A DNA stretch of 64,000 nt from contig CAMKSF010000001.1 of the NCBI GenBank assembly GCA_946415375.1, positions 8,867-72,866 of the forward strand, written 5' to 3'. Of the stretch, positions 6,724 to 19,931 are shown piece after piece. The stretch comes from an uncultured Clostridia bacterium. Lineage in GTDB: Bacteria > Bacillota > Clostridia > TANB77 > CAG-508. The stretch's first letter is position 1. Each line of letters opens with the position of its first letter. A model generated the notes under the pieces. The model was not told where the DNA came from. It saw only the letters and a program-made list of their open reading frames with translations, and did no database searches. The position numbers were made by a program, and so were the translations under genes.

Positions 6724-9132
6724 TTAATATTTTTTCCTCATATTGTTTAAAGTATTGTTTACATTATCTGAAAATCCACTTGTATACCCATTTGAATATT
6801 GATTTCCTCCATTCGGAGTTTCTTTTGTTTTTCTTGCTGGTAATAATGGATATATAATATTTGATAATTTATTTAACAGATTTTGAAAATCTTTAGGATA
6901 TTTGCTTACAGAAATATTACATTCAGCTAATCCTTCTAGATATTTTGCATATACCTCCATATCAAATGGTATTTCTATTGGTATAATTGCATTTCTATCA
7001 AATAATTCAGTCATCATAGACATTTCTGGGTTATTATACCTTGACATTCCCCCAACAATTTTTTTAGCAGTTATTCCTCTAAGTCTTACTGCCTTATTAA
7101 TTACAATTCTTAATTTTCGTTGCTCTAATATTTCTCTATTTTTTAATTCTTTTAAGAAAGCTGTTAGAGGTTGTATTGTTAGTACATCCATACTTTGAAT
7201 TAAATAAATCTCTTGCGCTTTTTCAAAATACTCAAAAGGTGTTGAAAAATCACAGTCTAATAATGTTGCAGAATGATTCTGTACCAAATTTTCTAATATT
7301 GGACCAACTTCATTTATTCTTGTATTGTCTTGGCCTGGTATTTCAACATATACAGAAAGATTCTTAGCTACTCTCATTCCTCCAGGTTGTCCTTGAATTA
7401 ATCTTTCTATGCTGTTTGCAGCATCATTTCTTAAGCTATCATCATTATCATTATAAATATAGTATGAATTTTTATTATGTGTAGTATCTAAGATAGCTGT
7501 GTTAATGCCATTGTCTGAAAGTACTTTTGCAATATTATTCACAATAAATGATGTACCATTTTTACTTGTTCCAACAAATGCAATTACTTTTCTCTCACTT
7601 GAAAGCAAATTATTATAGTTTGTATAATCATACTCATCATTTGATTGATTGTAGCTTTGCATTTCCATTTTAGGAATTTGGTTATTTTCTATTCCATAAT
7701 TATATTCTTTTGATTCAACATTATTTTTATAATTTGTATTATAATTTTGACTTTCAAAAGGATCTTCTTCAATACTTCTTTCGTTTTTCTCATTTTCTTC
7801 ATTTTCGACTTCATTATAATCTAAACTATCTCTATCTTCATTATATAAACTTCCTATGTCATCTTTATTTGTATCTTCATAGTTGTCTATATCCTCATTT
7901 TCTTCTTCATCTTCAAATCCTGGTAAAACATCTTCAATTATAGGTTTTGGCCTTAGAAGGTTTTCATTTATAGGTTTAAGTTTTTCTTGGCTATTTATTT
8001 CTTCCTCTGGCTCGTCGTTAATTCCAGGTAAACTATCTATATCTAAATCTGATATATCTACTTGTCTATTTTCTATATCTTCTTCATCAGAAATTCTATG
8101 AGGAGTAGCAATCTTTCTCTTTGTTTTTTCAGTATTATCTTCTACTGATTTTTTTGAAGGTCTACCTCTTTTTTTAGAAGGCTGTTCTTGCACTTCTTCT
8201 TTTTTAATTCTTTCTTCATAGTCGTCCTCGAAATCATCATCGTCATCTTCATCATATTCTGTTATTGATATGGGTTTTTTTATAGTTACTTTCTTTATAA
8301 TGTTCTTATCTAAAGAAGAAGGTATTATAATTTGCTTTTTACTATTCTTTTTAGAATCCAATAGTTTTTCACTTGTGGGCTCTGTTTCTTCTATAGGTCT
8401 ATATTTTGACTTTGTTGTCCTTGGACTAATTGTTTTTTTGTCAGGAACAAATTTCTGATATTCTGTTGATACATCTTGAAGTATATCTTTTACATTTTTT
8501 GGTAAAATAGCAATAATGATTTTCATTTGTTTTTCGTTATACTGTGAAGCGATCTTTTTGAAACATTCATCATATTTATCTGCATTTCTTCCTAATTTTT
8601 TGAAATAACTTAATATATGTTGCATTTCTTCTTCACTAACATCATTTTCATCTTCAGGATCATACTCAACATTTTTAGAGTCGATTTTATAGTAATTTTT
8701 AGCATCTTTTTTTGAACGTGGTGAATTAATAAGTCTACAAACTTCATCTGTACTTCTATCATTTCCAACGATTGCATTATATATTCCAATACCAAATAGT
8801 TTAACTAATATTTCATCAGATTTAATTCTTCTTTCTGTACAAATTAATATTATTGGTATATCCTTTCCTTTTGTGCTAGAAGCCTCATCTGTAATACTAT
8901 CAAGTTTATTAAATACAAATCTATCTTTTTCTTCATAACTCGTACTGGTAAATTCTTCTAAATCTTCGTCTATTATAATTCTATCATACGATTTATCTCT
9001 TTGAATTTCTTTTAAAATAGCATTAAAATAATATACATTTTTATATGAGATAATCTCTTTATATTCTTTTTGATATTTCTTCACAATTGACAAAGACACC
9101 TTTTCATCATGTACTGCAAACAATACTTTCAT
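6724..9132 (-). CDS. multidomain protein: receiver-like N-terminus, long acidic low-complexity linker with an AT-hook, C-terminal ParA/MinD-like domain with a degenerate P-loop
   Basis: 802 aa. The N-terminus has CheY-like alternating beta/alpha character (MKVLFAVHDE...RIIIDEDL...IPIILIC). KKRGRPSKK at aa 320-328 (nt about 8158-8169 for RGRP). C-terminal VIAFVGTSKNGTSFIVNNIAKVLSDNGINTAILD resembles a deviant Walker A but lacks the GK[ST] lysine. Confidence 0.5.
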   Translation of the reverse strand: MKVLFAVHDEKVSLSIVKKYQKEYKEIISYKNVYYFNAILKEIQRDKSYDRIIIDEDLEEFTSTSYEEKDRFVFNKLDSITDEASSTKGKDIPIILICTERRIKSDEILVKLFGIGIYNAIVGNDRSTDEVCRLINSPRSKKDAKNYYKIDSKNVEYDPEDENDVSEEEMQHILSYFKKLGRNADKYDECFKKIASQYNEKQMKIIIAILPKNVKDILQDVSTEYQKFVPDKKTISPRTTKSKYRPIEETEPTSEKLLDSKKNSKKQIIIPSSLDKNIIKKVTIKKPISITEYDEDDDDDFEDDYEERIKKEEVQEQPSKKRGRPSKKSVEDNTEKTKRKIATPHRISDEEDIENRQVDISDLDIDSLPGINDEPEEEINSQEKLKPINENLLRPKPIIEDVLPGFEDEEENEDIDNYEDTNKDDIGSLYNEDRDSLDYNEVENEENEKNERSIEEDPFESQNYNTNYKNNVESKEYNYGIENNQIPKMEMQSYNQSNDEYDYTNYNNLLSSERKVIAFVGTSKNGTSFIVNNIAKVLSDNGINTAILDTTHNKNSYYIYNDNDDSLRNDAANSIERLIQGQPGGMRVAKNLSVYVEIPGQDNTRINEVGPILENLVQNHSATLLDCDFSTPFEYFEKAQEIYLIQSMDVLTIQPLTAFLKELKNREILEQRKLRIVINKAVRLRGITAKKIVGGMSRYNNPEMSMMTELFDRNAIIPIEIPFDMEVYAKYLEGLAECNISVSKYPKDFQNLLNKLSNIIYPLLPARKTKETPNGGNQYSNGYTSGFSDNVNNTLNNMRKKY

Positions 9133-10821: not shown

Positions 10822-11616
10822 CTATTGTGACATTCCATATTGACTGTATAACCAATTCATATAATTAAATGGTTTCATGGTCTCAGGATTCCCATAATCT
10901 ACTCCAAATGTATCAACTGTAACTGATTTAATTTTTACATCTTTTTTAGGAGTAGATTCTTCTGTATTTCCTGTTTCTTCACTATTATCTGCTTTTTTCA
11001 CTTTAACAGCTGCTATCTTTTTAACAACGTCCATTCCTTCTATAACTTTTCCAAATCCTGCATAATAACCACTTAAATTTGTATGATCATTAGTTGTCAT
11101 TATAAAGAATTGTGTACCAGCAGAATTATATGACTGTGTTGCAAGTGTAGAAGAATATTGTGTATAATCAGCACGTGCCATTGCTATTGTCCCCTCTGTT
11201 AAATTTAAATCATTTTTCACAAATTTGTTGGCATTAAATTCACCTTTTATGCTGTATTCTGTGTCATCATCATTTTGATATAAATCTTTTAATTTTGCGC
11301 TTCCTGTTCCGTCTCCACTTGAGTCTCCACCTTGAATCATAAAGTCTTTTATAATTCTATGAAATTTTAGTCCATTATAAAAACCATTATTTGCAAGTTT
11401 AACAAAGTTTGTTACAGTGTTTGGTGCTTTATTTGGATATAGTTCTATTTTAATTGTTCCATACCCTTCTACCTCCATAGTAGCTATTGGATTTTGTATT
11501 TTTGTAGTAGCCTTTTTTGCATATCCTACACATAAAATTACTAATATTGCAACTAGTATAATCAATGTAATAATTGATATTATTATTTTCGGCATATTTT
11601 TCTTTTCTTTTTCCAT
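10822..11616 (-). CDS. ppiB: membrane-anchored cyclophilin-type peptidyl-prolyl cis-trans isomerase
   Basis: FHRIIKDFMIQGGD and GTIAMAR cyclophilin motifs. Start moved to MEKEKKNMPKIII, preceded by GGGAGG located inside the end of the upstream ORF. The track start at 11691 would overlap that ORF. Confidence 0.85.
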   Translation of the reverse strand: MEKEKKNMPKIIISIITLIILVAILVILCVGYAKKATTKIQNPIATMEVEGYGTIKIELYPNKAPNTVTNFVKLANNGFYNGLKFHRIIKDFMIQGGDSSGDGTGSAKLKDLYQNDDDTEYSIKGEFNANKFVKNDLNLTEGTIAMARADYTQYSSTLATQSYNSAGTQFFIMTTNDHTNLSGYYAGFGKVIEGMDVVKKIAAVKVKKADNSEETGNTEESTPKKDVKIKSVTVDTFGVDYGNPETMKPFNYMNWLYSQYGMSQ

Positions 11617-11621
11617 TTTTA

Positions 11622-12983
11622 TTAATCCTCCCTTTCTATACTCGTATCTGTTTTTTCTCTTTCTTGTTTTCCTTCTAAAAGTGCTTTGCATACATATTCA
11701 TCTAATATAGCCAATTTAGGTCTAAATACGTCATTATAGTATTCTGTAGTATGTTCTCGTATATATTCTGTTTGAAATCTTTCGTCATTTATTATATCTT
11801 CCGATATATTGTAATTATTTTTCTTTAATATGTTTATATAATAATTAACAAATGTTTCATTTGTATATTTATAATCATCCAAAAGCTTATGTCCGTGATT
11901 TTCAATAAGCTCTAACAACTCTTCTAAAGTTGGATTTAATCCCTCTTTTTTTAATAATTCAAATATCGAAATAATACGATTTGCTCTTTCTTCTAATACC
12001 CTCTGCATCATATTCTCAGATTCCACATGTATTACGCCTTCATATTTACTTCCTTGCTTACAAGACTTCAGCACTTTTCTTGCATTTAGTTCAACCTCTG
12101 AATCTTCTTTCAACCAGCCATTATTAGTAATTTCCTCTGGTTGTTTTCCTAAGCAAGCAACTAAACTTAAAACCGCATCATTTAATGATATTCCATCATA
12201 TGGTACAATTATAGCATTAGGATTTAAATTCAACTTATTCTTTTTTATTTCCTCTATTTCATTTTTTGGGACTAATATATAATATTTTTTTTCTAAGTGT
12301 ACATTACCTTCAAAATAAGTATCTTCAAAATTTACAGAAAGCAAATTTTCTCTATTAACGTCATTAAACCCTACTACTATTGCATATTTTCTATCATCCC
12401 AATTCCCATATCTATGACTTGTTACTGGTCCATTTAAGCCAAAATGTGTAGAATCATTAGCAGCTAAATAATCTGCTTCATATTTTTTTCCCCTAAAAGA
12501 AAAACGGGTTGTTTTTTTAGCATGTGTAGATTTAGCTGTATATATTGTATCATTACACGGAAAAAAGTTAGTTTTATGAACTAATAAAAAATCTTCTAAA
12601 CTTTTAAAAATAGGTTTTTCCTTTTTCTTTTTGTAATAATTACCTGTTGTACTTTCACTTATTATCGTATCATTTTCATCAAATTCATAGCATATTTTTC
12701 CACTTTTAACAAATTCAAAAATGTCTTTTATTCTTTTTTCCGAATAAATTTTTCTATTATCTCTTTCTACTCTTATATCTTCAATTTCTTTATCAATTTT
12801 TTCAATCTGATCTTTTATAGGTCGATTTTTTTCACGATGCTGTCTATTAGTATCTTTAATATATTTTTTTCTAAAAATCTTATCAAATAATGAGAATCTT
12901 TTATAGGGTATCATCTCATTTTGTAATTTATGCTTTTCATTTTCCAACTCTTGCAACTTTTTTTCATAATATTCTTTTAACAT
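11622..12983 (-). CDS. uncharacterised protein, paralogous to the ORF at 14785-16728 (family A)
   Basis: Long open frame. Start set at MLKEYYEKK, preceded by AGGGAGAA. Shares blocks with the 647-aa ORF (STHFGLNGPVTSHRYGNW...NLLSVNFEDTYFEGN versus TLHFTVNSLVSDHMYGKF...NLLPSDSFITGN). Its 3' end carries the ppiB RBS. Confidence 0.7.
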   Translation of the reverse strand: MLKEYYEKKLQELENEKHKLQNEMIPYKRFSLFDKIFRKKYIKDTNRQHREKNRPIKDQIEKIDKEIEDIRVERDNRKIYSEKRIKDIFEFVKSGKICYEFDENDTIISESTTGNYYKKKKEKPIFKSLEDFLLVHKTNFFPCNDTIYTAKSTHAKKTTRFSFRGKKYEADYLAANDSTHFGLNGPVTSHRYGNWDDRKYAIVVGFNDVNRENLLSVNFEDTYFEGNVHLEKKYYILVPKNEIEEIKKNKLNLNPNAIIVPYDGISLNDAVLSLVACLGKQPEEITNNGWLKEDSEVELNARKVLKSCKQGSKYEGVIHVESENMMQRVLEERANRIISIFELLKKEGLNPTLEELLELIENHGHKLLDDYKYTNETFVNYYINILKKNNYNISEDIINDERFQTEYIREHTTEYYNDVFRPKLAILDEYVCKALLEGKQEREKTDTSIERED

Positions 12984-13010
12984 TATATTATTTCTCCCTA
13001 AACAAACCAT

Positions 13011-13039
13011 ACTATATAACAATTTTTTTTTTATGTCAA
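13011..13039 (-). promoter_or_regulatory. sigma-A-type promoter for the family-A ORF / ppiB unit
   Basis: Minus strand reads TTGACA, then 17 nt, then TATAGT. It lies immediately after the hydA stop and upstream of the RBS and ATG at 12983. Confidence 0.55.
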
Positions 13040-13046
13040 GAAAAAC

Positions 13047-14792
13047 TTAGCAATATTTTTCTCTTTTTGCATAAACTGTATGTAATAGTTCATGTGCTTT
13101 GTGTCCGTTTGGTTCTCCAAAGAAATCTTTATAAATCTCTTTAAGTATAGGGTTTTGATGTGATTTTCTAATTGTTGATTTTTCATCTATTGTGTATAAT
13201 GCATCTGCTCTTAATTTTCTAACATCATATTTCCTTCTAATTTTTGAAGATTTTATAGGTTGACCTCCACCCATTATGCATCCTCCTGGGCAAGCCATAA
13301 TTTCTATAAAATCTGCTTCTACTGTTCCATCTTTAACCATTTCCATCACTTTTCTTGCATTTCCTAAGCCGCTTGAAACAATGATTCTAATATCTTTTCC
13401 ATTAACATTTACAGTTGCTCTTTTTATTCCTTTTTCTCCACGTACATCCTCGAATTTTATTTCTTCTAAGTCTTTTCCTGTTAATAAGTCTTGTGCTGTT
13501 CTTAATGCAGCTTCCATAACTCCACCTGTAGTTCCAAATATTGCTGCAGCTCCTGTTGCTTCTCCCATAGGATTGTCAAATTCTGAATCTGTCAAATCTT
13601 CAAAATCTATATTTGATTGTCTTATCATTTTTGCAAGCTCTCTTGTTGTAATAACTGCATCCACATTATATAAATCTTCATTTTTCATTTCCGGTCTTTG
13701 TCTTTCAAATTTTTTAGCAACACATGGCATTACAGATACAACAAATATATTTTTAGAATCAATATTATTCTTTTCAGCATAATATGTTTTTAAAATAGCA
13801 CCAAACATTTCATGTGGTGATTTACAACTTGACACATTTGCTAAATATTCTGGATATTCCATTTCTATAAATCTTATCCATGCTGGGCAACATGATGTAA
13901 ACATTGGCAATGGCTTTTTCTCATCAGCTTTTAAAACTCGATTTATAAACTCTGATGCTTCCTCCATAATTGTAAAATCAGCTCCTGTGTTTGTATCAAA
14001 TACTTTATTAAATCCAAGTCTTTTAAGTGCTGTAACCATTTTACCTTGTACATTTGTACCAATTGGCATACCAAATTCTTCTCCTAACGCAACCCTTACT
14101 GCTGGAGCTGTTTGTACTAATACAACTGTATCTTCATCTTTTAATTTTTCCCAAACTTCATCTATATTTTCCTTTTCATGTAAAGCTGCCGTTGGACAAT
14201 TTTGAATACATTGTCCACAAAATGTACAATTTACATCTGCAAGTGATTTATTTCCTACAGTTGAAATGCTTGAGTCAAATCCTCTATTAACACATTCAAT
14301 TGCTCCTATTTCTTGTACTTTTTGACAAGTACTTGTACATCTTCTACATAACACACATTTTGCAGTATTTCTAACTATCGATGTAGATTTATCATCTATT
14401 TGCTTTTTATTTATTTCACCCTCAAACTCCACATCAGTTATTCCAAATTTTTTAGCTAAATCTTGTAATTCGCAATTCTCATTTCTAATACAACTTAAGC
14501 ACTTTTTTTCATGTGCTGAAAGTATTAATTCTAATACATTTTTTCTAGCCTCATTAACTTCTTTTGTATTTGTTCTAACTACCATTCCCTCTGTAACTTT
14601 TTGCATACATGAAGGGACAAATCCTCTTGCACCTTCAACTTCTACAAGGCACATTCTACAATCTCCAACTTCATTTATATCTTTCAAAAAGCATAATGTT
14701 GGAATATCTATCCCTACTGATTTGGCTGCTTCCAAAACAGTCATATTTTCAGGTACCTCAGTTTCAATTCCATCTATTGTAATTCTAATCAT
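13047..14792 (-). CDS. hydA: [FeFe]-hydrogenase catalytic subunit, HydA of a HydABC (NADH/ferredoxin, bifurcating-type) complex
   Basis: All three H-cluster motifs are present: TSCCPAW, MPCVAKKFE, EIMACPGGCIMGGGQP. N-terminal 2Fe-2S and 4Fe-4S ferredoxin Cys clusters. Neighbours NuoF- and NuoE-like genes. Confidence 0.92.
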   Translation of the reverse strand: MIRITIDGIETEVPENMTVLEAAKSVGIDIPTLCFLKDINEVGDCRMCLVEVEGARGFVPSCMQKVTEGMVVRTNTKEVNEARKNVLELILSAHEKKCLSCIRNENCELQDLAKKFGITDVEFEGEINKKQIDDKSTSIVRNTAKCVLCRRCTSTCQKVQEIGAIECVNRGFDSSISTVGNKSLADVNCTFCGQCIQNCPTAALHEKENIDEVWEKLKDEDTVVLVQTAPAVRVALGEEFGMPIGTNVQGKMVTALKRLGFNKVFDTNTGADFTIMEEASEFINRVLKADEKKPLPMFTSCCPAWIRFIEMEYPEYLANVSSCKSPHEMFGAILKTYYAEKNNIDSKNIFVVSVMPCVAKKFERQRPEMKNEDLYNVDAVITTRELAKMIRQSNIDFEDLTDSEFDNPMGEATGAAAIFGTTGGVMEAALRTAQDLLTGKDLEEIKFEDVRGEKGIKRATVNVNGKDIRIIVSSGLGNARKVMEMVKDGTVEADFIEIMACPGGCIMGGGQPIKSSKIRRKYDVRKLRADALYTIDEKSTIRKSHQNPILKEIYKDFFGEPNGHKAHELLHTVYAKREKYC

Positions 14793-16728
14793 CTCTTCCT
14801 CCTTTATCTACTTTATATTCTTCATCGAAATCTTCTTTTGTAATCAATCTCTCATCTAAATTTTTTTGATCTTCTTTTTTTCTTTCTAACTCGTATCTCT
14901 TTTCTATAGTCTCATCATATTTTCCAATGATTTCTTTCATTTTAGAAGGAGATATTTTTTTCAATACATCTGTTAAATAATCACCATATAGTTTATCTAA
15001 TTCAATCGTTTCAGGCTCATAATAAAATTTTCCATCACCAACATCCATTCCAACTCCATTCATATATCCTAAAGCCATTTTTAATCTATCATAATCAAAA
15101 TCTTCGCCAAGTAAGTGATGAGCTTCTTCTTTTATTATTTCAACCATAATCTTTATTTCTTCTCTTATAACTTTCATACTTTTATTTATATCTTGATTAT
15201 CCCATTTTGAACCCATATGAGATCCACACTCTATACCTTTTTGTTGAGACTCTTTTATCAATCTTTGATTCATTTTATCTAGGTACTTTTCTGCATATTC
15301 ACCTTCATCATAATTATAATAAAATGAAGATACTGTTCCAAAAACTTTATCTTGTTGATTTAAATATAATTGAGCTGCATATTGATATATATCCTTTTCA
15401 TCATCAACATTTCTTTTTATTTCTTCTTCATCAAATAATATAATGTCTAATCTTTTTAATTCCTGTGCAATTTTTTCATCTTTCATTAATTCTTTGTAAT
15501 TTTTAAATGAAATTAGTGCTATCTTCACCTTCAAATTTCCTGTTATAAAGCTGTCTGATGGAAGTAAATTAACAGCTCTATCCTCTATATCATCTGCTGA
15601 AACTATATAAATAATTTTTCCCTCACTAAATTTACCATACATATGATCACTTACCAAAGAATTTACAGTAAAATGTAACGTCTGTCTTAGTTGATTCGTT
15701 TTCTGTTTATAGTCATCTATATTCTCATCTGGAAAAGCATTTTTTATTGTTTCTAGTCCAAAAAATGAGTCAGTTTTTCTTGGTTCAGAAAATAGTCCTA
15801 TTGGCTCTAATAATCCTAAACGAGAAATTCTATCCGTATTAACAAGTCTTAAATAGACTGTATCTTCTTTTTTCACCTCATGATTGTTTTCAGATAACTT
15901 TTTTTGTGCTAATTCATCATTAGCTCTTATTAAAGACTCTCTGTCAATCACTTCAAGTATTTTTGGGCATTTTTCTTGACTATTTATTTCTATACCTTTT
16001 TCAGATAAAATAATTCTATTTTTTATATCCTCTTCAACACATTCTAAGAAATATTTCTTAAATTCTTTAGTTAAATCATTACCTAAAACTTCCCTTGCTA
16101 ATCTCATTTTTTCTTCGGTATCTTTGCATCTTTTTATAGATTGTATCTTTTTATTAATAAATGAAATCTTTGCATTTTTTATTATTTTTTTTCTTTGTTC
16201 ATCTCTGTCACAATTTCTTTCTATAAATGAAATAAAGTTTTCTAAAATACTATATGAATTAAAGCTTTTTAATTCATCTTTATTGTCTTTTGAATAATAT
16301 TTTTCGAAATGTCCATAAATATCAATTATACCTTCACTTGTATATCTTACGCCGTACTCTCTTTCCTCTACATTCTTATTTATTTTAGAATAAGTTCTCT
16401 TCTCTCTCACAAATTTAATTGATTTTTGAATTTCTTCGTCATCTTTCAAAATAGATTCGATATAATCATACTCGTCCCCATATGATTTTTTTTCTGAAAT
16501 GATGTTGTTACTATTTATTTTATTATAGTATCTAAATAATTCCATTATTCTCGATAATAATATTTCTAATTTATATTTTTTTGAACTACCATCTAAATTA
16601 TCATCATTAATTATCTCATTTATTTCTTTTTTTAAAATATCAAGTTTAGATTCGAATTCTTTTTCTTTATTTTCGTCTTTTTCCTTATTCAACATTTTTT
16701 TTATTATTTTTAATAAATTAAAATTCAT
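14785..16728 (-). CDS. uncharacterised 647-aa protein (family A paralogue) inserted between hydB and hydA
   Basis: 647-codon open frame with an AGAGGA RBS. Its stop overlaps the hydA start (ATGATTAG) and the hydA RBS AAAGGAGGAAG lies in its last codons. No recognisable domain. Confidence 0.75.
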   Translation of the reverse strand: MNFNLLKIIKKMLNKEKDENKEKEFESKLDILKKEINEIINDDNLDGSSKKYKLEILLSRIMELFRYYNKINSNNIISEKKSYGDEYDYIESILKDDEEIQKSIKFVREKRTYSKINKNVEEREYGVRYTSEGIIDIYGHFEKYYSKDNKDELKSFNSYSILENFISFIERNCDRDEQRKKIIKNAKISFINKKIQSIKRCKDTEEKMRLAREVLGNDLTKEFKKYFLECVEEDIKNRIILSEKGIEINSQEKCPKILEVIDRESLIRANDELAQKKLSENNHEVKKEDTVYLRLVNTDRISRLGLLEPIGLFSEPRKTDSFFGLETIKNAFPDENIDDYKQKTNQLRQTLHFTVNSLVSDHMYGKFSEGKIIYIVSADDIEDRAVNLLPSDSFITGNLKVKIALISFKNYKELMKDEKIAQELKRLDIILFDEEEIKRNVDDEKDIYQYAAQLYLNQQDKVFGTVSSFYYNYDEGEYAEKYLDKMNQRLIKESQQKGIECGSHMGSKWDNQDINKSMKVIREEIKIMVEIIKEEAHHLLGEDFDYDRLKMALGYMNGVGMDVGDGKFYYEPETIELDKLYGDYLTDVLKKISPSKMKEIIGKYDETIEKRYELERKKEDQKNLDERLITKEDFDEEYKVDKGGRDD

Positions 16729-16757
16729 ATTTATCCTCTAATTGTTTATATTTTTTA

Positions 16758-18617
16758 TCACTTAATAGCCTTAAATGGACACTTACTAATACATGTACCA
16801 CATTTAATACATTTTTCTTGATTTATCTGTCGTTTGGTTCCTGGTCCTTCTCCTTCAATTGCTCCAACAGGGCAATTCTTTTGACATAATCCACAACCTT
16901 TGCATAATTCGGGATTAATCTCAATTTTTGCTAATTTCTTACATTCATTTGTACTGCATTTTTTATCTACAGCATGTTCTTCATATTCATTTCTAAAATA
17001 TTTTAATGTACTAATTACAGGGTTTGAAGCTGTTTGTCCAAGTCCACAGACACTTGCTTTCGATATTGTTTTTGTTAATTCCTCTAATTTATCTATATCT
17101 GCTAGAGTCCCTTCTCCGTTTGTAAGTTTTTCTAATATCTCATACATTCTTTTTGTTCCAATTCTACATGGATTACATTTTCCACAGCTTTCATCTACGG
17201 TAAATCCTAAATAGAATTTTGCAAGATTAACCATACATTTTGAATCGTCCATAACAATAAGTCCACCTGACCCCATCATCGAACCTATTTCTTTTAAAGA
17301 TTCATAATCTATTGGAGTATCTAAATATTCTGCTGGAATACATCCTCCAGATGGTCCTCCTGTTTGAGCAGCTTTAAATTCTCTTTTATTTGGAATTCCT
17401 CCACCAATATCATAAACAATTTCTCTTAAAGTAGTTCCCATAGGTACTTCCACTAAACCTATATTATTTACATTTCCTCCAAGTGCAAATACTTTTGTTC
17501 CTTTTGAGCCTTCTGTTCCAATAGATGCATACCAATCTGCTCCATTTCGAATTATTTTAGTAATATTTGCATATGTTTCAACATTATTTATAAGTGTTGG
17601 ACATTTCCATAATCCACTATTTGCTGGAAATGGTGGCTTTAGTCTAGGCTGTCCACGTCTTCCTTCAATTGACTCAAGTAGTGCTGTTTCTTCTCCGCAA
17701 ACAAAAGCCCCAGCTCCAAGTCTAATATGTAAATCAAATTCAAAATCAGTTCCAAAGATATTTTTTCCAAGTATTCCTTTTTCTCTTGCTTGGTCTATTG
17801 CAATTTGAAATCTTTTAACTGCAATTGGATATTCTGCTCTAACATAAATATATCCTTCATTAGCTCCTATTGCGTATCCCGCAATCATCATTGCTTCTAT
17901 AACACAGTGTGGATCTCCCTCTAATACACTTCTATCCATAAATGCTCCCGGGTCTCCTTCGTCTGCATTACATACAACATATTTTTGCTCTCCTTCTGCT
18001 TGTTTCGCAAAAAGCCACTTCTTACCCGTTGGGAATCCAGCTCCTCCACGTCCTCTAAGTCCTGATTTTGTTACTTCTTCTATTACTTCATCAGGTGTCA
18101 TTTCTTTTAATACTTTTTCTAATGCTAGATATCCATCAAAAGCTATATATTCATCTATATCTTCTGGATTAATGACTCCACAATTCTTTAAAACAATTCT
18201 TTGTTGTTTCTTATAGAATTCAAGTTCATCTAGTTTTTCGACTAGTTTTCCATCAATATCCTTGCATAAAAGCCTTTCAACTCTTTTATTTTCAACAATA
18301 TGCGTTTGAATTATTTCTTCGCAATCTTCTGGTTTAACATGTGCATAAAAAGTATTTTCAGGTCTAATTATTACAACAGGTCCTTTTGCACATAATCCAA
18401 AACATCCTGTTTTTATAACTCTTACATTTTCAATATTTTTTTCTTCTAATGTTTTTCTAAAATTTTCTAAAATTTCAGGTGATTTAGAAGATGTACATCC
18501 TGTTCCATGACATACTAAAATATGTTTTTCCCTTGTATCAGATTTTGTATTTATTCTTAATTCTAACTCTTTTTTCTTTTCTTCTCTTATTTTATGAATT
18601 TCTTCTATTGTATTCAT
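16758..18617 (-). CDS. hydB: NuoF-like NADH-binding flavoprotein subunit HydB
   Basis: GLRGRGGAGFPTGKKW FMN/NADH motif. N-terminal thioredoxin-like 2Fe-2S (VCHGTGCTSS). C-terminal 2x[4Fe-4S] (CKGCGLCQKNCP, CIKCGTCISKCP). Confidence 0.92.
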   Translation of the reverse strand: MNTIEEIHKIREEKKKELELRINTKSDTREKHILVCHGTGCTSSKSPEILENFRKTLEEKNIENVRVIKTGCFGLCAKGPVVIIRPENTFYAHVKPEDCEEIIQTHIVENKRVERLLCKDIDGKLVEKLDELEFYKKQQRIVLKNCGVINPEDIDEYIAFDGYLALEKVLKEMTPDEVIEEVTKSGLRGRGGAGFPTGKKWLFAKQAEGEQKYVVCNADEGDPGAFMDRSVLEGDPHCVIEAMMIAGYAIGANEGYIYVRAEYPIAVKRFQIAIDQAREKGILGKNIFGTDFEFDLHIRLGAGAFVCGEETALLESIEGRRGQPRLKPPFPANSGLWKCPTLINNVETYANITKIIRNGADWYASIGTEGSKGTKVFALGGNVNNIGLVEVPMGTTLREIVYDIGGGIPNKREFKAAQTGGPSGGCIPAEYLDTPIDYESLKEIGSMMGSGGLIVMDDSKCMVNLAKFYLGFTVDESCGKCNPCRIGTKRMYEILEKLTNGEGTLADIDKLEELTKTISKASVCGLGQTASNPVISTLKYFRNEYEEHAVDKKCSTNECKKLAKIEINPELCKGCGLCQKNCPVGAIEGEGPGTKRQINQEKCIKCGTCISKCPFKAIK

Positions 18618-18646
18618 AACATTCTCCTTTCAAATAATTTTGTTTG

Positions 18647-19411
18647 TTAAACTCTCTCTTCAATTTGTTTTTCGTTTTCTTCTCTTATTTCTAAAACTCT
18701 TTTTTTAAATTCTTCATCATCTTTAAATATATCTGGATTTCTTTTGATATCATTTAATAATTCTTTGCCAAAGACAGACACTACCTTTGAACCAACAATC
18801 TCTTTATTGTAAAGCTTTGAAAGTATTTCTAATAATTCTTCACTTTTAATACTTTCCAAAACTCTAAATCCTGTTAATTTTATATATTCGTCTTTTGGCA
18901 TAACAAGATTTCTTGTCCAATCAATTATTTTTCCATTCTTTGTTTCAATAACTGAATGCAAATACCTTCCACCAGATACATTTGTATATCCAGTTAGTAC
19001 ATTATTATTTATCATTCCAACTGCCATTCCTATTGAAGCCAAATGACAGTGCCTATACCTTTTTTCTGATTCTAATTCTTTTTTACTTTTTTTATCATCT
19101 ATTGAATTTGATATTTTATCAAATGTATATTTTTCTCCTAAATACTCAAATTCATATTCCTCATTTTCTTCATTCCAAACTATTCGAGAAAAATCAAATT
19201 TTGTCTTAGCTCCAAAATATTTTTTAATAAAAGATATAAAAATGCTCTTCTCTCTAAATCTTGTATAGGTTTCTATAATGTATAAAATATAATCTCTTAT
19301 CTCTTCTTCTTTATCACGCTCTCTAATATTATCTTTATCCGTAAACAATAGGTCATATGTATTTTTATTAATGCCATTTTCTTTATATTTCATCTCATTA
19401 TTATCTTTCAT
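18647..19411 (-). CDS. uncharacterised protein with a possible transglutaminase-like Cys-His-Asp core, inserted between hydC and hydB
   Basis: 254 aa with an AAGGGG RBS. RYRHCHLASIGMAVGM (Cys) followed by GGRYLHSVIETKNGKIIDWTRN resembles the C...HxWxE...W.xDpT layout of the transglutaminase-like peptidase fold. This is a by-eye assignment only. Confidence 0.6.
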   Translation of the reverse strand: MKDNNEMKYKENGINKNTYDLLFTDKDNIRERDKEEEIRDYILYIIETYTRFREKSIFISFIKKYFGAKTKFDFSRIVWNEENEEYEFEYLGEKYTFDKISNSIDDKKSKKELESEKRYRHCHLASIGMAVGMINNNVLTGYTNVSGGRYLHSVIETKNGKIIDWTRNLVMPKDEYIKLTGFRVLESIKSEELLEILSKLYNKEIVGSKVVSVFGKELLNDIKRNPDIFKDDEEFKKRVLEIREENEKQIEERV

Positions 19412-19433
19412 ATAAAATAACCCCTTAACAAAC

Positions 19434-19931
19434 TTAAGTGTTTTCTTTCAGAATTTGGTCTATTACTTGATCTAATATCTGTACTGTTGCCATTCCATAT
19501 ACTTCTCCATTTACTGTAAATACAGGTGCTAGTCCACAAGCTCCAACACATCTTGTTTCTTCTAAAGAAAAAAGTCCATCTTCTGTAGTTTGTCCTGGTT
19601 CAATTTTTAGTCTTTCTTTTGCTCTATCTAATATCTTTTCTGAACCTTTTACAAAACATGCTGTTCCAAGACATATAGCAATATTATATTTTCCTTTTGG
19701 TTCTAATGTAAATCTTGAATAAAATGTTATAACTCCATATATTTCTGCCATAGGCATATTTAAATATTCTGATATTTCCTCTTGTGCATGCTTTGGTATA
19801 TATCCATAATGTTCCTGCACACTATTTAATATTTGAATTAAATTGTCTTTTTCTGGTTTATATTCTTTTAATAAATCTTTCATAAAGCAATCTTTCTTTG
19901 AATTTCCACATTGACATTTGTTTTCTCCCAT
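19434..19931 (-). CDS. hydC: NuoE-like 2Fe-2S subunit HydC
   Basis: CLGTACFVKG...CVGACGLAP thioredoxin-like [2Fe-2S] ferredoxin motif. 165 aa; first gene of the hydrogenase cluster. Confidence 0.9.
   Translation of the reverse strand: MGENKCQCGNSKKDCFMKDLLKEYKPEKDNLIQILNSVQEHYGYIPKHAQEEISEYLNMPMAEIYGVITFYSRFTLEPKGKYNIAICLGTACFVKGSEKILDRAKERLKIEPGQTTEDGLFSLEETRCVGACGLAPVFTVNGEVYGMATVQILDQVIDQILKENT

Follow-up and report, generated by a model that had tools for sequence, protein, structure and literature searches.

Strain-variable single genes at the junctions of a HydABC-type hydrogenase operon in an uncultured gut Clostridia bacterium

What are three large open reading frames (ORFs) doing between the subunit genes of a hydrogenase? 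The question is raised by a 64,000-nucleotide (nt) stretch of contig CAMKSF010000001.1 (assembly GCA_946415375.1, positions 8,867 to 72,866; hereafter the window) from an uncultured gut Clostridia bacterium, in which the ORF listing gives, on the minus strand, the order hydC, orf254, hydB, orf647, hydA, orf453 and ppiB. An earlier description of this DNA (hereafter the sequence-only reading) had noted the interleaving and offered two explanations, namely free-standing selfish genes or unrecognised accessory or regulatory subunits of the hydrogenase. Here we compare the locus with those of its relatives and describe the protein families to which the three ORFs belong. Because the same junctions in close relatives are empty or hold unrelated genes, we regard the ORFs as strain-variable guests and not as hydrogenase parts; they are probably promoterless single-gene accessory cassettes in an operon that acts as a hotspot of gene turnover.

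The hydC-hydB, hydB-hydA and hydA-ppiB junctions are designated as gaps 1, 2 and 3, respectively, and the guest genes as orf254, orf647 and orf453. Contigs of relatives carry L numbers, and protein homologues carry P numbers. Lengths are in amino acids (aa) and E denotes the E-value. The features of the locus are as follows.

19434–19931, minus strand: hydC, 165 aa, first gene of the operon, NuoE-like 2Fe-2S subunit (2Fe-2S_thioredx, PF01257, E 3.5e-52)
18647–19411, minus strand: orf254, 254 aa, guest of gap 1
16758–18617, minus strand: hydB, 619 aa, NuoF-like flavin/NADH subunit (Complex1_51K, E 1.6e-47; NADH_4Fe-4S, E 3.7e-33; Fer4)
14785–16728, minus strand: orf647, 647 aa, guest of gap 2
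13047–14792, minus strand: hydA, 581 aa, catalytic subunit of a group A6 [FeFe] hydrogenase (Fe_hyd_lg_C, E 4.8e-102)
13039–13011, minus strand: promoter-like TTGACA-17-TATAGT directly after hydA, 11/12 consensus match
11622–12983, minus strand: orf453, 453 aa from ATG 12983 (466 aa from TTG 13022), guest of gap 3
10822–11616, minus strand: ppiB, 264 aa from ATG 11616, cyclophilin-type isomerase (Pro_isomerase, E 3.9e-42)
11550–13208, no strand assigned: low-divergence tract common with L090, comprising orf453 and reaching about 160 nt into the 3' end of hydA and about 65 nt into the 5' end of ppiB

The host genes encode a HydABC-type NADH-dependent [FeFe] hydrogenase of group A6: HydA scores 885 bits on the curated NCBIfam model NF040763 ('NADH-dependent [FeFe] hydrogenase, group A6'), above its cut-off of 765, and HydB and HydC are encoded alongside. 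The Pfam and NCBIfam scans (NF040763, Complex1_51K and 2Fe-2S_thioredx) thus bear out the three subunit assignments of the sequence-only reading, and the interleaved gene order was recovered both in the ORF listing and in independent contigs. The junctions are reproduced in the independent metagenome contigs L002, L090, L091 and L092, and we therefore rejected an assembly chimera as the origin of the layout. The ppiB gene calls in L090 and L092 are likewise 264 aa long.

Each inserted ORF has its own ribosome-binding site, as had been claimed; those read at the junctions are AAGGGG for orf254, AAAGGAGA for hydB, AGAGGA for orf647 and AGGGAGA for orf453 at ATG 12983. The predicted translational coupling of orf647 to hydA also holds: orf647 ends in AAAGGAGGAAGAGATGATTAG, its stop codon overlaps the hydA ATG in an 8-nt overlap (ATGATTAG), and the Shine-Dalgarno sequence of hydA lies inside the last orf647 codons. 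The tail of orf453 contains AGGGAGGA, the Shine-Dalgarno sequence of ppiB, within its last codons and 5 nt before the ppiB ATG at 11616. The ancestral Shine-Dalgarno regions of hydA and ppiB supply the C-terminal codons of orf647 and orf453, respectively. The sequence-only reading had assigned to orf453 both the ppiB ribosome-binding site and a promoter of its own, and only the former assignment stands. L086 and L003, both of which are devoid of orf453, keep this TTGACA-17-TATAAT-like site immediately downstream of hydA, and it is therefore the ancestral promoter of ppiB. The guest orf453 sits in the 5' untranslated region (UTR) of ppiB, with the ancestral ppiB promoter now in front of it. No minus-strand terminator was found between hydC and ppiB.

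Relatives of hydB were sought in one genome per species. The scan yielded 80 loci, and all those with more than 74% HydB identity belong to uncultured Clostridia, with gut samples, among them those of ruminants and rabbits, as the source of many. In the close relatives compared, HydB is 95–97% identical, and HydC is 91–99% identical at the aa level in L003, L086 and L090. The occupancy of the three gaps in these relatives is as follows.

Window: gap 1, orf254; gap 2, orf647; gap 3, orf453
L003 (goat omasum metagenome-assembled genome RGIG2666; hyd genes 88–89% identical at the nt level): gap 1, empty, 95 base pairs (bp); gap 2, unrelated 122-aa ORF; gap 3, empty
L086 (hyd genes 85–89% identical at the nt level): gap 1, orf254 relative, 59% identical; gap 2, empty, 55 bp; gap 3, empty
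L090 (HydB 97% identical at the aa level): gap 1, divergent orf254 relative, 58% identical; gap 2, unrelated 165-aa ORF; gap 3, orf453, 98% identical

The 122-aa ORF in gap 2 of L003 is weakly nucleoside-deoxyribosyltransferase-like. The 165-aa ORF in gap 2 of L090 (2971–3468), hydrophobic by inspection, runs through the Shine-Dalgarno sequence of hydA and stops in ATGATTAA, overlapping the hydA ATG, as orf647 does. Across about 30 relatives, the occupants of gap 2 fall into eight unrelated families and those of gap 1 into three, with membrane proteins among them. In L004–L030, hydCBA is contiguous in most and interrupted by other small ORFs in some. Gap 2 of L001 holds three ORFs: a 44% identical relative of orf647, a 551-aa ORF and a 568-aa ORF of unknown type. 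A precomputed DUF4153 match of the 551-aa ORF was not reproduced by our own Pfam scan (E <= 0.001). The description of the ORFs as lineage-specific is therefore borne out by synteny and can be narrowed: they are strain-specific additions to an otherwise contiguous hydCBA-ppiB unit. As a separate observation, hydA of L001 is frameshifted into frames of 76 and 528 aa (L001:5976–7728), which reflects an assembly error or a pseudogene, and hydA of L024 is also split.

The boundaries of the additions are precise. When the window is aligned with relatives whose gaps are empty, homology ends at the upstream stop codon and restarts at the downstream Shine-Dalgarno sequence. The empty gaps contain no ORF remnants or deletion scars (z-scores −1.1 to 1.9), and the search for terminal or target-site repeats around the inserts returned only AT-rich chance matches, direct or inverted. 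Pfam, NCBIfam, PHROGs and PADLOC revealed no nuclease, transposase or other mobility domain in the three ORFs, and the PADLOC defence-system models likewise did not match them. No integrase domain was found among the ORFs scanned with Pfam, which were those at 10822–19931 and five further ones, the remaining window ORFs lying outside that scan. The GC content of the three ORFs (0.25–0.26) is within the range of the window (0.28 +/- 0.03), and foreign composition was accordingly rejected.

A short motif was also observed in the spacers of relatives. Sequences near TTKGGGACGGAGGRAAAAA occur a few bases past the stop codons of hydC or hydB, with occurrences of the motif at L002:387, L003:3156, L013:7957 and 9867, L022:7958, L121:2177, L098:214 and L109:312. 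An inverted, anti-Shine-Dalgarno-like form, CCCTCCGTCCC, is present in the ppiB 5' UTR of L003, with reverse orientation at L003:5595 and 5530. The motif TTKGGGACGGAGGRAAAAA is absent from the whole window, and an Rfam search of four relatives returned nothing relevant. Possibly the motif is a regulatory element, intercistronic or in the UTR, whose place the insertions took.

The guest ORFs are under purifying constraint, at a level different from that of their hosts. Ratios of nonsynonymous to synonymous substitution rates (dN/dS) are 0.20–0.44 for the guests (0.43 for orf647 against L002), 0.03–0.06 for hydB and hydA (0.04 for hydB) and at most 0.12 for hydC, indicating that the guests are real, constrained proteins that evolve about 10 times faster than the hydrogenase. 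Gap 1 shows this divergence most directly, since its alleles are 54–59% identical among strains in which HydB is 95–100% identical, with the drop in identity confined to the ORF. Furthermore, orf254 of the window is closer to the allele of L087 (63%), where HydB is 81% identical, than to the alleles of its own clade.

The comparison of orf453 with L090 shows the opposite pattern. The gene is 98–100% identical at the nt level, whereas its flanks are 87–95% identical. The low-divergence tract, read from 13208 to 11550, has 21 mismatches in about 1,650 nt (1.3%) and ends inside hydA and ppiB, the remainder of which is about 8–18% diverged; dS in this comparison is 0.04 for orf453 and 0.38 for hydA. 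A tract of low divergence with both ends in the neighbouring core genes fits a double crossover, i.e., homologous recombination in the flanks.

These data bear on the possibility that nothing has been gained or exchanged, in that the ORFs have long resided in the lineage under relaxed constraint and relatives with empty gaps have lost them by clean deletion. Such a history would be compatible with the native composition of the ORFs, with the orf647 relative in L002, which is about as diverged as its flanks, with the 44% identical relative that follows hydB in L001, and with the orf254 relatives, which within the tight clade only L003 lacks. We nevertheless consider it unlikely, given that the empty gaps carry no scars, that sister strains have unrelated genes in the same gap, that divergence is far lower in the orf453 tract than on either side of it and that the relationships among orf254 alleles conflict with the hydB tree. 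Decay under relaxed constraint is further argued against by dN/dS values below 0.45 and by the invariant catalytic-type residues of the families described below.

What kind of protein, then, does each guest encode? No direct match for orf254 was obtained in Pfam, NCBIfam, PHROGs or PADLOC. Among its 35 homologues, C122, H123, H152, S153, D164 and N168 are invariant (C122, H152 and D164 in an alignment of 26 sequences). In an AlphaFold2 (AF2) model with a predicted local distance difference test score (pLDDT) of 85, a helix spans residues 122–131 and strands span residues 148–156 and 161–164, so that Cys122 is at the N-terminus of the helix while His152 and Asp164 are on adjacent, consecutive strands. 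Alignment of the family profile with hhalign connects orf254 to a 275-aa ORF in gap 2 of L004 (96.9% probability, E 1.3e-10), which itself barely passes the Pfam Transglut_core model (PF01841; 23.4 bits, cut-off 23). The top Foldseek matches in the PDB were the Legionella effector Ceg10, vasohibins, ubiquitin-specific proteases (USPs) and GtgE, all non-significant (E at least 0.14, template-modelling score about 0.2). Vasohibins, USPs and GtgE, though not Ceg10, are well-known cysteine proteases. A search of PDB sequences with the orf254-family profile gave no match. Based on the model and the conserved residues, orf254 is probably a divergent transglutaminase/papain-like protein and a putative cysteine peptidase. 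With Transglut_core and papain-fold peptidases it shares the placement of the Cys at the start of a helix and of the His and Asp on the strands that come next; it differs from the Transglut_core peptidases in the absence of a direct Pfam match and in its N- and C-terminal helical parts, which have no counterpart there.

Relatives of orf254 occupy gap 1 in this clade and in L087, L088 and L095. They are also found between a miaB-like gene and mutS at about 17 loci (39–48% identity), and in a third context in organisms with 24–25% GC. A profile scan of viral contigs detected no member of the family.

The neighbourhoods of some of these relatives are themselves changeable. The miaB-mutS interval of a different gut lineage varies between L083 and L084, L111 and L106, with further ORFs that come and go: L084 and L111 have a 250-aa helix-turn-helix ORF and a 98-aa ORF that L083 does not have, and L106 has a 229-aa Xre-like helix-turn-helix ORF that is also absent in L083. 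Tandem divergent orf254-like copies (226 and 219 aa) in an organism with 24% GC (L120:263–2381) are split by a 231-aa ORF with a hydrophobic stretch near its N-terminus. In L112, L117, L118 and L119, which are otherwise collinear, the upstream neighbour of a distant orf254-like gene differs and may encode a protein with DUF1835/DUF3658, a KAP-family P-loop NTPase accompanied by a partner ORF, an unrelated product of 184 aa or a tRNA synthetase of class I. The downstream genes are constant, and this is therefore another variable junction.

The other two guests have a common core and belong to one large unannotated family. The homologues of orf453 include P0005–P0009, while orf647 has only four close homologues and is a divergent member of the orf453 family. 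HMMER searches with a joint orf453/orf647 profile collected 1,053 clusters at 50% identity (E <= 1e-3), 136 of them at E <= 1e-30, and a profile built without the window sequences recovered orf453 with an E of 1.8e-89 and residues 341–634 of orf647 with an E of 5e-9. The residues H180, N184, D221 and H319 do not vary among 62 family members. Position 238 is almost always Cys, but orf453 has Val there and orf647 is aligned without a Cys at that site. Judging from these residues, the family has a putative enzyme-like signature. An HNH-like reading of the H-x3-N-x5-H motif was rejected, as in our judgement its spacing is too short for a beta-beta-alpha-metal finger.

No database search gave this family a name. 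Neither orf453 nor orf647 matched Pfam, NCBIfam, PHROGs or PADLOC, and the same four collections returned nothing meaningful for the 62 members, with one marginal PADLOC match (E 3.4e-4). The family profile matched no PDB sequence, and the AF2 model of orf453 (pLDDT 76) had no fold match by Foldseek in the PDB or BFVD. The clusters of ten family members were all unnamed, an exact look-up of the orf647 sequence retrieved no record, and a scan of genome contigs with orf647 peptides, whose 8-mers were too specific, retrieved no relative.

Family members elsewhere lie beside unrelated genes: just upstream of ispG in L124, in a block that also contains ltaS, downstream of rnr in L126, and upstream of uvrB in another case. 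A distant member, P0009 (30% identity over half its length; L089:7001–8431 and flanks), is surrounded by unannotated ORFs and by genes for TrbC-type pilins, TraC-like and TraG-like proteins, which places it in a conjugative element. This was the only link found between the guest families and a mobile element, and a tblastn search with P0009 against plasmids and phages gave no match.

The proposal that the ORFs are accessory to the hydrogenase can now be weighed. They might be lineage-specific accessory, regulatory or maturation factors of HydABC, for example a transglutaminase-like protease or cross-linker that acts on a subunit with which it is co-translated. Their tight co-orientation and the coupling of orf647 to hydA are what one would expect in that case, as are the orf254 relatives in gap 1 of two separate clades and the distant transglutaminase-like relative in gap 2 of L004; extra small genes are also known in HydABC loci, such as hydD and hydE of Acetobacterium woodii and the HATPase_c and 2Fe-2S genes of L036. 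However, intact hydCBA genes with empty or otherwise-filled gaps are present in L003, L086, L090 and most of L004–L030, and the guest families recur at miaB-mutS and elsewhere among unrelated genes. Pfam and NCBIfam reveal no Fe-S, flavin or HATPase motif in the ORFs, and alleles that are 54–59% identical beside HydB proteins that are 95–100% identical are difficult to reconcile with conserved binding to a partner. Maturation of [FeFe] hydrogenases uses HydE, HydF and HydG, and to our knowledge involves no protease, which also counts against the proposal. An accessory role, which the sequence-only reading had kept as its alternative, is hence quite unlikely. The ORFs have also not turned out to be annotated, widespread hydrogenase accessory proteins: they match neither HATPase_c nor 2Fe-2S_thioredx, and the gaps vary among relatives.

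A third possibility, that the ORFs are free-standing homing-type selfish elements, each encoding a site-specific nuclease whose cut in an empty junction leads the repair machinery to copy the gene in, is very unlikely: although presence and absence are precise at identical sites between highly conserved genes, the orf453 tract reaches shortly into both flanks as a co-conversion tract would, and the invariant His, Asn, Asp and His of the orf453 family could form a novel metal-dependent active site, no LAGLIDADG, GIY-YIG, HNH, VSR or PD-(D/E)xK domain was detected in the three ORFs and 62 family members (Pfam, NCBIfam and PHROGs), the orf453 model has no fold match, orf254 resembles a cysteine peptidase and not a nuclease, alleles at one site are highly divergent, and the gaps hold many unrelated genes, membrane proteins included, in place of one homing gene with its cognate site. 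Of the idea that selfish genes had settled between conserved genes, we thus retain strain-variable guests whose families also lie between other conserved genes elsewhere, and we discard selfishness of the homing type, for which neither a nuclease or mobility domain nor terminal repeats were found.

Promoterless accessory cassettes in a turnover hotspot therefore remain our preferred explanation, and its steps can be outlined. Across related strains and species, the junctions behave as hotspots of gene turnover, being empty or holding divergent alleles or unrelated genes. Each cassette takes the place of the short spacer that otherwise separates an upstream stop codon from the Shine-Dalgarno sequence after it, and the guests would be read from the transcripts of the host operon. 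By running through the ancestral Shine-Dalgarno sequence downstream (orf647 and orf453) or stopping just before it (orf254), the cassettes leave hydB, hydA and ppiB with their translation signals. A first insertion may have occurred by illegitimate recombination in the spacer. Thereafter, cassettes could pass from strain to strain through homologous recombination with two crossovers, one in each of the core genes (hyd or ppiB) on either side, a step that the tract supports for orf453 and that we infer for the other two. The guests most likely act independently of the hydrogenase and exploit a strongly expressed operon, and their role may be a fast-evolving strain-level function such as inter-genomic conflict.

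Several observations weigh against this explanation. The native composition of the ORFs implies either that the donors were similar organisms or that the genes are old residents of the lineage, and the recombination tract was seen for one cassette in one strain pair. The return of the orf254 family to gap 1 in two clades and its distant transglutaminase-like relative in gap 2 of L004 could each reflect a functional link to the hydrogenase. As for a role in conflict or defence, there is no match in PADLOC or PHROGs and no relative in viral contigs.

A bolder extension of the cassette hypothesis would make the core-operon junctions of this gut Clostridia clade dedicated cassette slots, integron-like but devoid of an integrase and attachment sites, with a cargo that includes unrecognised conflict or defence enzymes. 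We put this forward tentatively and regard it as doubtful. The cargo of such slots may comprise the hyper-variable transglutaminase-like peptidase and the His/Asn/Asp/His family of about 1,050 clusters.

The locus is unusual in that three junctions of a core energy-metabolism unit are occupied, two inside hydCBA and one between hydA and ppiB, with one of them turning over among eight families, and in that the host translation signals are preserved at each occupied junction. Should this arrangement prove general, strain-specific genes might have an overlooked home in the highly expressed operons of small, AT-rich genomes from the gut. Two families deserve characterisation, namely the fast-diverging transglutaminase-like protein and the large family that is absent from Pfam, NCBIfam, PHROGs, PADLOC and the PDB. 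For annotation, the locus is a warning that position alone does not make such ORFs hydrogenase subunits.

Two further genes of the window, both on the minus strand, were noted in passing. A 351-aa ORF at 23149–24204 is a strong compositional outlier, with a GC content of 0.417 and a GC content at third codon positions of 0.42, against a window mean of 0.277; it contains a HIT-like HAHTHV motif, has no Pfam match at E <= 0.001 and may be a recent foreign acquisition. An 802-aa ORF at 6724–9132, conserved in L003 and L090 and also without a Pfam match, has a long acidic low-complexity middle, and a ParA/MinD-like P-loop stretch, VIAFVGTSKNGTS, was recognised by eye in its C-terminal part.

How does the locus compare with known systems? 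Phage morons are likewise single extra genes that lie between genes adjacent in relatives, are functionally unrelated to their neighbours and vary among close relatives. Morons, however, are genes of phages and are classically described as each having a promoter and a terminator, whereas the guests here have neither, lie in a metabolic operon of the chromosome and have no phage relatives that could be found. Free-standing homing endonuclease genes, e.g., those of T4-like phages, are similar in their precise intergenic presence or absence and short common flanking tracts; they differ in that the present guests have no recognisable nuclease domain and that each site holds many unrelated families and divergent alleles. 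Unlike integron cassettes, the guests are not flanked by attC-type inverted repeats, and none of the ORFs scanned with Pfam has an integrase domain.

Extra genes are known in HydABC loci, and the statement in the sequence-only reading that characterised loci are contiguous does not always hold. In A. woodii, the order is hydA1-hydB-hydD-hydE-hydC, and this set is reported to be well conserved with the hydrogenase across Acetobacterium (bioRxiv 10.1101/2020.01.23.904417). In Anaerotruncus L036, a HATPase_c ORF (E 2.7e-18) and a 2Fe-2S_thioredx ORF lie between hydC and hydB, and a similar hydC-hydB spacing of about 1 kb recurs in many more distant Clostridia. These genes are interleaved with hydA, hydB and hydC, as the guests are, but have no sequence relationship to the three ORFs, which vary between strains.

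Our reading matches a class of horizontal-transfer hotspots described by Oliveira et al. (PMC5635113), many of which are free of mobile elements and owe their diversity to recombination in the core genes on either side. Here as there, relatives differ in which of many unrelated accessory families occupies a given interval between core genes, integrases and transposases are not apparent, and the tract ends inside the flanking core genes, as seen for one cassette in one strain pair. New genes are reported to integrate rarely within operons (PMC5635113); the present hotspots, in contrast, are internal to an operon of closely packed genes and occupy each of its junctions. Those earlier hotspots are multi-gene islands, whereas each guest described here is a single promoterless ORF placed in the space from a stop codon to the Shine-Dalgarno sequence that follows it.

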